Counted from the first letter of the stretch, positions 16,184 to 16,250 are shown. The stretch: 41,357 nucleotides of DNA from Candidatus Gastranaerophilales bacterium (GCA_947624605.1 CANQLA010000001.1:1-41357); one strand, 5' to 3'. Program-made: numbers and translations. Notes: generated from the sequence alone by a model not told the origin.

Positions 16184-16210
16184 TAAAGTTTTTAAAAATT
16201 TTCCCGATAA
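16184..16210 (+). promoter_or_regulatory. near-consensus sigma-28 (FliA/SigD-type) promoter
   Basis: TAAAGTTT (16184-16191), an 11-nt spacer, then CCCGATAA (16203-16210), versus the consensus TAAAGTTT-N11-GCCGATAA. The -10 ends 40 nt upstream of the ATG at 16251. Confidence 0.6.
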
Positions 16211-16250
16211 AATATTTGTAAGGTAAGAAAATAAGTAAGGAGCGCTAACA

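Follow-up and report, generated by a model that had tools for sequence, protein, structure and literature searches.

We analysed a complete NCBI contig (41,357 bp; hereafter the window) of a Candidatus Gastranaerophilaceae metagenome-assembled genome (MAG), which belongs to the non-photosynthetic Cyanobacteria / Melainabacteria. The element at 16184-16210, upstream of the open reading frame of an unnamed protein (ORF B), is likely to be a functional sigma-28-type promoter, a reading well supported by conservation. It is conserved over the whole order of gut non-photosynthetic cyanobacteria, where it would drive a large uncharacterised family of proteins with a flagellin-like build but no detectable relation to flagellin, also in genomes for which loss of flagella is reported. 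Three features are noteworthy: the promoter has three parts, its target family is both large and anonymous, and it persists in "flagellum-less" gut cyanobacteria.

The composite at 16184-16210 matched TAAAGTTT-N11-GCCGATAA at 15 of 16 positions, with 40 nt between the -10 element (16210) and the ATG of ORF B (16251). A preliminary description of the window, made by reading its sequence, had proposed this match with its 11-nt spacing, a position about 40 nt before the ATG, and the absence of any other full match. Re-reading confirmed every coordinate, and the site was the only one in the whole 41-kb contig with at most one mismatch to TAAAGTTT-N11-GCCGATAA. A relaxed pattern (TAAA-N15/16-CCGATAW) occurred twice compared to 0.29 expected; the second copy (TAAA-N15-CCGATAT; 35825-35799, minus strand) lies within a solute-binding-protein gene. 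We scored the window with a lineage position weight matrix (PWM) trained on 59 related promoters. The site at 16184-16210 scored 22.5 bits; the runner-up in the window had 11.1 bits, which is also the score of the relaxed copy. Equally good matches, which the preliminary description had named as refuting if frequent, are thus not frequent here. Across 60 simulated windows, the best score per window was 12.8 at the median and reached 24.1 at most. The heptamer CCGATAW was found in 39 copies compared to 11.3 expected from dinucleotide shuffles, mostly within genes, which is probably an effect of codon usage. Because it is so common, the -10 heptamer is uninformative by itself and only the composite is informative. 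Sigma-70-like hexamers overlapping the site (TTTACA-16-TAAAGT) were no better than chance and were rejected.

To follow the element in relatives, we used 80 loci of the ORF B family obtained from a scan of 185,579 species genomes (L numbers below denote related loci); nearly all of the 80 are from Melainabacteria MAGs, with several copies per genome. The bipartite element was visible by eye in the 130 nt upstream of family genes. In a first pass, 47 of 75 upstream regions had three or fewer mismatches to it, compared to 0.5% of shuffled sequences; once all family genes in the loci had been gathered, the count was 60 of 105 distinct upstream regions. The lineage consensus is (C/T)TAAAGTTTT-N11-TGCCGATA(A/T), i.e. 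yTAAAGTTTT-N11-TGCCGATAw, and in 56 of the 60 element-bearing promoters the distance from the end of the -10 to the ATG was 27-54 nt. Fifty of these promoters have a 12-nt spacer between -35 and -10, and the other 10 have one of 11 nt. The "exact spacing" of the preliminary description thus holds for the enteric consensus of 11 nt and not for the lineage, where 12 nt is the norm.

Sites with two or fewer mismatches numbered 70 in 1.33 Mb of related loci compared to 3-6 in simulations (~14-fold excess), and ~50 of the 70 directly precede family genes. Overall, we observed the element before orthologues and paralogues in more than 60 genomes. When the window was aligned with its five closest B-type orthologues, the conserved islands were ATGTTACAAA, AAAATTAAAGTTT, sCCGATAA and the leader GTAAGGTAAGAAA-TAAGTAAGGA, and the rest was divergent. 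Such phylogenetic footprinting before homologous genes is the decisive evidence over chance. Sequence, spacing, position and orientation all bear out the sigma-28-type assignment, and this conservation does so most of all.

Read from its sequence, the promoter is tripartite, with an upstream box that the preliminary description overlooked in addition to the -35 and -10 elements. The box (16150-16166) is a pair of TGTwAC(A)-like half sites that repeat at 11 bp, each close to the palindrome TGTwACA; its minus strand reads as a perfect TGTAAACTTTTTGTAAC, and the B-orthologue alignment has a conserved block ATGTTACAAA here. The pattern TGTwAm-N5-TGTwAm (two or fewer mismatches) was present in 47 of the 60 sigma-28-type family promoters compared to ~10% of shuffles, and the gap to TAAAGTTT was 16-17 nt in 35 of these 47. 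We found two similar direct-repeat hexamers, a 10-11-bp period and a fixed upstream position, as in an activator site of the OmpR/PhoB type. We take the box to resemble the ArcA/PhoP boxes of OmpR/PhoB-family response regulators, in a class-I activator position. TGTAAA repeats similar to the box also occur upstream of sigma-28-type sites that do not precede family genes.

Transcription of B is predicted to start at ~16217-16219, given the usual 6-8 nt after a -10 element. The two GTAAGG repeats noted earlier in the leader are real and are kept among B orthologues: GTAAGG at 16218, which has no canonical GGA, and GTAAGGAG at 16235. The second GTAAGG (16235-16240), which the preliminary description took to be the Shine-Dalgarno sequence, overlaps the Shine-Dalgarno AAGGAG at 16237-16242. 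In the leader block GTAAGGTAAGAAA..TAAGTAAG(G/A)A, nearly all positions were invariant in six B-type sequences, and the flanks diverged. Leaders of other subfamilies also carry two AGG/GGA motifs, the second being the Shine-Dalgarno sequence. Rfam gave no match in the window or in the leaders of B and of its upstream paralogue (paralogue A). By the predicted terminators on either side, B is a monocistronic unit (Table 1).

Table 1. Coordinates of the promoter, its transcription unit and neighbouring features (window positions unless a locus is named)
Feature	Position	Strand	Remarks
Direct-repeat box TGTTAC-AAAAA-GTTTAC	16150-16166	+	Ends 17 nt before -35; candidate activator site
-35 element TAAAGTTT	16184-16191	+	TAAAG invariant in 60/60 related promoters, TTT in 51-56/60; sits in invariant block AAAATTAAAGTTT of the B-orthologue alignment
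11-nt spacer	16192-16202	+	Between -35 and -10; single-column alignment gap, 1 nt shorter than in the 5 closest orthologues
-10 element CCCGATAA (consensus GCCGATAA)	16203-16210	+	CCGA near-invariant in 60 related promoters
Leader (~33 nt), GTAAGGTAAGAAAATAAGTAAGGAGCGCTAACA	16217-16250	+	Two GTAAGG motifs: 16218-16223, 16235-16240
ORF B	16251-17114	+	287 aa; unnamed Gastranaerophilales family
Intrinsic terminator	17167-17195	+	Strong; hairpin 17167-17185, 8-bp stem, 4 GC pairs, then T-run; ends B unit
Sigma-70-like promoter of A	14131-14159	+	TTGATT (14131-14136), N16-17, TATATAA (14153-14159); ~153 nt before ATG
Long conserved leader of A	14160-14283	+	~125-140 nt among A-type genes; hairpins 14166-14181 and 14198-14220
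Palindrome TTAAGTT-N13-AACTTAA in leader of A	14239-14265	+	Conserved in A-type genes
Paralogue A	14284-15216	+	310 aa, 38% identity to B, same conserved termini
MID	15230-16051	+	273 aa, Gly/Ala/Ser-rich, C-terminal helix; starts 14 nt past A stop
Terminator-like hairpin	16076-16096	+	After MID gene; divides A-MID unit from B
S90/MINI operon with perfect site	L051 11983-12791		Leader ~170 nt; likewise L055, L060, L010/L084, L063, L079, ~20 others

ORF B had 4,223 homologues, all unnamed, and the named sources were Gastranaerophilales. The family comprises 2,752 representative clusters (50% identity) with lengths of ~295-750 aa. Residues 1-55 and the last ~90 are near-invariant, and the middle is hypervariable in sequence and length. 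In an AlphaFold2 (AF2) model of B (predicted local distance difference test, pLDDT, 86.8), a helix (2-47) is followed by a beta-rich part (60-210) and a 75-residue C-terminal helix (212-286). Conserved termini, a hypervariable middle and several paralogues, the traits of flagellins, were thus all found in the B family, whose members are built like a filament subunit of the flagellin kind, without detectable homology. The proteins are rich in Thr/Tyr/Gln and poor in Cys/His/Trp (37% of members Cys-free compared to 11% of background ORFs), a composition that fits an exposed or exported protein.

Searches of Pfam/NCBIfam assigned no family, flagellin PF00669/PF00700 included, to A, to B or to 24 members, even with a threshold of E <= 10; Pfam matches on the family were to generic coiled coils only. 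A PDB sequence search with B returned no match. With the B model, Foldseek against the PDB reached a best E of 0.027, flagellins had template modelling (TM) scores below 0.2 and the D0/D1 helical fold was not found; against BFVD, TM was at most 0.26. A comparison of the B family with an FlgL/Hag alignment by hhalign gave a probability of 0.3%, and searches of PHROGs and PADLOC gave no family for B.

Paralogue A has no sigma-28-type motif upstream, in agreement with the preliminary description. A block GTATTGATT-N14-AATCATTATATAAATA was common to A and its five orthologues (6/6), 153-171 nt before the ATG. The leader of A, with its conserved hairpins and palindrome, may be a cis-regulatory RNA of a new kind, or an operator. 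The adjoining gene, MID, is presumably co-transcribed with A. MID carries glycine-zipper-like stretches and adjoins a family gene in 45 of 84 loci; its 769 homologues are of constant length, 60-90% identical, restricted to Gastranaerophilales and without family assignment. The differential control of A and B that had been suggested is supported for this sub-clade because A and its orthologues share the sigma-70-like promoter and the long leader; family-wide, it is a tendency only. A rule by which the MID-adjacent paralogue has a sigma-70-type promoter and the others a sigma-28-type promoter was rejected as such, since 15 family genes beside MID had sigma-28-type and 14 sigma-70-like promoters.

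We also looked at what else stands behind such promoters in relatives. In 26 loci there was an operon of a basic 90-aa protein (S90) and a 107-aa "mini-paralogue" (MINI), which consists of only the N- and C-terminal helices of the family; this operon is absent from the window. Sites of perfect consensus preceded it in L051, L055 and L060. Further sites close to the consensus were upstream of genes for a CHAP-like hydrolase, a coiled-coil protein of 272 aa, a 714-aa protein and a 2,767-aa protein resembling filamentous haemagglutinin (FHA-like). The site before the 2,767-aa protein (L011, 1299) is accompanied by three TGTAAA repeats, and the protein has an N-terminal signal and a filamentous-haemagglutinin-like repetitive body. 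The hydrolase (site at L025, 970) has an EF-hand-like N-terminus.

In the window, Pfam assignments for 33 ORFs included an RND efflux pump, Mur ligases, Ddl, an FtsQ-like protein, NadE, HisG, YebC, and TPR and ankyrin proteins. None was to a flagellar, chemotaxis or sigma gene, which upheld the earlier statement that no flagellar gene is present in the window. Complete flagellar gene sets have been reported for a minority of Gastranaerophilales only (PMC4040986; bioRxiv 10.64898/2026.04.24.720558). For Gastranaerophilus genomes, the table of Soo et al. 2014 gives only FlgB/C/F/G, FlhA/B and FliE/I/J/P/R, and no FliC, FliD, FlgE/K/L, FliF/G/M/N or MotAB. One of the organisms in that table is G. 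phascolarctosicola Zag_221 (L063), in which we found three sigma-28-type sites: one upstream of a family gene, one upstream of the operon of the 90-aa protein and mini-paralogue, and one upstream of the 714-aa gene. The regulon therefore survives in a genome for which loss of the flagellum, with no flagellin, hook or motor, is reported.

We propose the following mechanism for B. A sigma-28 holoenzyme of the FliA/SigD type would read 16184-16210 and start ~7 nt downstream, near 16218, and the box at 16150-16166, most likely bound by a response regulator of the OmpR/PhoB family, would gate this promoter. The product would be a monocistronic mRNA with a 33-nt leader, and the terminator at 17167-17195 would end it. 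With two AAGG motifs, one of them on the Shine-Dalgarno sequence, the invariant leader is a likely place for control of translation; CsrA, which acts on flagellin mRNAs, might be the regulator. B would be one of several paralogous subunits whose terminal helices form the core of a polymer and whose beta-rich middle is exposed. A and the Gly-rich MID would be made from the sigma-70-type promoter, with B as a "late" gene. The proteins of the B family would most likely be surface-located or extracellular, leaving the cell through the retained flagellar type III export gate. We put the probability of this whole package (activator-gated sigma-28 promoter, controlled leader, late surface-exposed polymer subunit and export by the flagellar gate) at roughly 0.6. 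The motif, its rarity and conservation, the layout of the transcription unit and the build of the family are results of the comparison, whereas the sigma factor, start site, activator, CsrA control, polymerisation and export are inferred. Taken alone, the export or filament part is plausible but less likely than not. More speculative is a picture in which B, its paralogues and MINI would be subunits of an unrecognised surface filament or needle-like appendage, built by the vestigial type III export gate and rod that remain in most Gastranaerophilales after loss of hook, filament and motor. In that picture MID might sit in the membrane or at the tip, the 90-aa protein might act as a chaperone or as a checkpoint factor like FlgM, and the promoter would be a surviving "late-gene" checkpoint.

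Several observations weigh against this mechanism. The 11-nt spacer of the window is the minority form in its own lineage, 1 nt shorter than in all five orthologues. B has no homology to flagellin or hook-associated proteins by sequence or by fold, and the AF2 model of MID was unusable (pLDDT 38.8). With E. coli FliA and B. subtilis SigD as baits, we found no gene for a FliA/WhiG-type sigma factor among related loci totalling ~1.5 Mb. All four sigma genes seen there were RpoD-like, with FliA_WhiG scores of 117-126 bits (cutoff 189.6); for the sigma factor of L053, FliA_WhiG was not among the best 25 families. In the Melainabacteria genome literature examined, supplements included, fliA was not mentioned. 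The flagellar operons of flagellated relatives (flgF..flgL, fliW-csrA; flagellin loci not among them) were without the motif. In the flgM-like/flgN/flgK/flgL and fliW-csrA regions of these relatives no site had a PWM score of 12 or more, and in 12 flagellar loci from a metagenome scan with L052 FlgL the motif stood only before the family gene. Because no FliA-type sigma factor was seen and the flg operons lack the motif, the basis for naming the sigma factor, and for a link to flagella, is the motif itself.

Gene adjacency gave a similar picture. Flagellar neighbours lay within 10 kb of family genes in ~6 of 80 loci: FlhB (L038, L030), FliJ/FliK-like/FlgE-like proteins (L009, L010) and flgK-L (the L052 clade). 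This is near chance expectation, and synteny was therefore not counted as evidence. Among individual cases, a solitary FlhB (378 bits; L038 7938-9113) is 0.9 kb from a family gene. At L084 18299-20320, 8 kb from a family gene, are a weak FliJ, a FliK-like protein (Flg_hook domain at 24.8 bits, below cutoff) and an FlgE/F/G-D1 protein. The exception to chance adjacency is one flagellated clade (L052, L086, L088, L093) in which the family gene is convergent with flgL. In flagellated relatives, the flg operon SLT-flgF-G-A-H-I-J-(94 aa)-flgN-K-L coexists with the family gene (L052 11063-19449); its 94-aa gene is FlgM-like by position, and the operon has no sigma-28-type site. On the contig of a family gene in the flagellated relative L093, Pfam identified fliW (111 bits) and csrA (79.6 bits), together at 19435-20175. 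Their possible bearing on the two AAGG motifs of the B leader is a lead, not a result. The preliminary description had tied B to the motility/type III export regulon. This was not borne out, with no fliA in ~1.5 Mb, flg operons without the motif and adjacency at about chance; membership of B in such a regulon is plausible.

These same data bear on an alternative in which the promoter is genuine and is read by another sigma factor, such as a group-3 SigF-like factor of cyanobacterial ancestry. There would then be no link to flagellar export, and B would serve as a structural coiled-coil protein in the cytoplasm or the envelope. Such a reading would account for the lack of a FliA gene in related loci, flg operons without the motif, no synteny enrichment with flagellar genes, a regulon that persists in genomes without hook, filament or motor, and Pfam matches to generic coiled coils only. 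We nevertheless consider it unlikely. A -35 of TAAAGTTT with a -10 of GCCGATAA is, by textbook knowledge, specific to the FliA/SigD/WhiG clade, as seen in Proteobacteria, Firmicutes, Chlamydiae and Actinobacteria, and the SigF promoter of cyanobacterial pilA1 reportedly looks different. The hypervariable middle and Cys-poor composition also suit an exposed protein better than a cytoplasmic one.

A flagellin-like role was also weighed, in which B and its paralogues are the true filament, or a sheath or cap component, of Gastranaerophilales flagella, and the copies in "non-flagellated" genomes are relics or those genomes are incompletely annotated. The sigma-28 promoter with a flagellin-like architecture fits this, as do the convergence with flgL in the clade of L052, the absence of canonical flagellin among the related loci examined and the absence of FliC from the tables of Soo et al. 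However, canonical flagellin genes have been reported in flagellated Melainabacteria (Di Rienzi et al. 2013), which makes it unlikely that the family is simply "the flagellin". Moreover, the family is multi-copy and intact, with intact promoters, in genomes without hook, junction or motor genes; it has no homology to flagellin, and none of its dedicated partners (MID, S90, MINI) belongs to a flagellar family. We regard this role as clearly improbable. A chance match or a non-promoter element (repeat, operator) in an AT-rich intergenic region is hardly credible: CCGATAW alone is common in the window (39 copies), 1 of 60 simulated windows reached a comparable PWM score and the spacer is 1 nt off that of the orthologues, but both half-sites are kept in 60 promoters from many genomes, with orientation and ATG distance fixed while the surroundings diverge, and near-consensus sites are in ~14-fold excess at genome scale.

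We compared the proposed sigma-28-type unit with known systems. Like class 3 flagellar promoters (FliA in enterics, SigD in Bacillus; fliC/hag), it has elements matching at 15 of 16 positions, 11-nt spacing in the window, a short leader with a strong Shine-Dalgarno sequence, a highly conserved monocistronic gene with its own terminator, and a product whose terminal helices are conserved and whose middle varies. Unlike them, the norm in Gastranaerophilales is a 12-nt spacer, and there is an extra direct-repeat box 16-17 nt upstream. In addition, neither the sequence nor the fold of B is that of a flagellin, fliA was not found in the related loci, and the flagellar operons of relatives are without the motif. 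With ArcA/PhoP boxes, the upstream box shares two TGTTAA/TGTAAC-like hexamers at 11 bp centre to centre and a class-I position at ~-60. It differs in that the half sites of the B promoter are themselves nearly palindromic (TGTwACA), and a UP-like element is also possible.

Sigma-28 is kept without a flagellum in Chlamydia and, as WhiG, in Streptomyces. FliA/FlgM are likewise retained without a flagellum in Legionella oakridgensis (PMC5655016). As in these regulons, the promoter logic of the FliA type would persist here and control non-flagellar genes. Unlike these organisms, Gastranaerophilales retain part of the export gate and rod, and the main targets are a multi-copy, hypervariable, filament-like family and its dedicated partners, rather than scattered regulatory or virulence genes.

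Flagellin synthesis is controlled by a FliW-CsrA-flagellin partner switch for B. subtilis hag and Campylobacter flaA. The B leader is likewise short, with two purine-rich GGA/AGG motifs of which one overlaps the Shine-Dalgarno sequence, and csrA and fliW are present in L093 on the same contig as a family gene. The first motif of the B leader is AAGGU and not the canonical ANGGA; the leader is a candidate for CsrA control. Reduced flagellar systems act as protein exporters in Buchnera. Gastranaerophilales similarly keep export gate and rod genes without filament or motor. Secretion has been suggested for their reduced flagellar apparatus (bioRxiv 10.64898/2026.04.24.720558); no substrate has yet been proposed for it, and the B family is a candidate.

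Gastranaerophilales are widespread uncultured gut relatives of Cyanobacteria, and ~3/4 of their genomes keep a flagellar stump of unexplained role. Our data suggest that the apparent main output of the flagellar-type late-gene promoter in this lineage is a very large, unnamed, fast-evolving family, together with a few conserved partners and two further control points. The B family would thus be a concrete candidate for what the reduced apparatus exports or builds, and with the defined promoter signature the regulon can be mapped in metatranscriptomes as well as in complete genomes. Should the proteins be exposed on the cell surface, host immunity or phage would probably target their hypervariable domains, as with flagellins. 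If the appendage reading is true, a cyanobacterial lineage of the human gut would independently have turned a flagellum into an organelle for secretion or adhesion.

We made two further observations on the family. A distant relative (MGLSASQARLLSVTQR...; L011 20601-21011) has its own site, TAAAGGGT-N12-GCCGATAA, and runs off the locus; a homology search with it returned 27 short homologues, all unnamed or implausibly named. A third class of promoter was seen upstream of family genes in L036, L050, L058, L059, L067 and L070, with TTGaTT-N14-ATCATTAAAt followed by ACCGAC/GTCGAC and preceded by TTTACA repeats. In the leaders of L058 and L070 (and of L059, with different spacing), a Shine-Dalgarno-like GAGGA and an ATG could start a peptide of ~10 codons.

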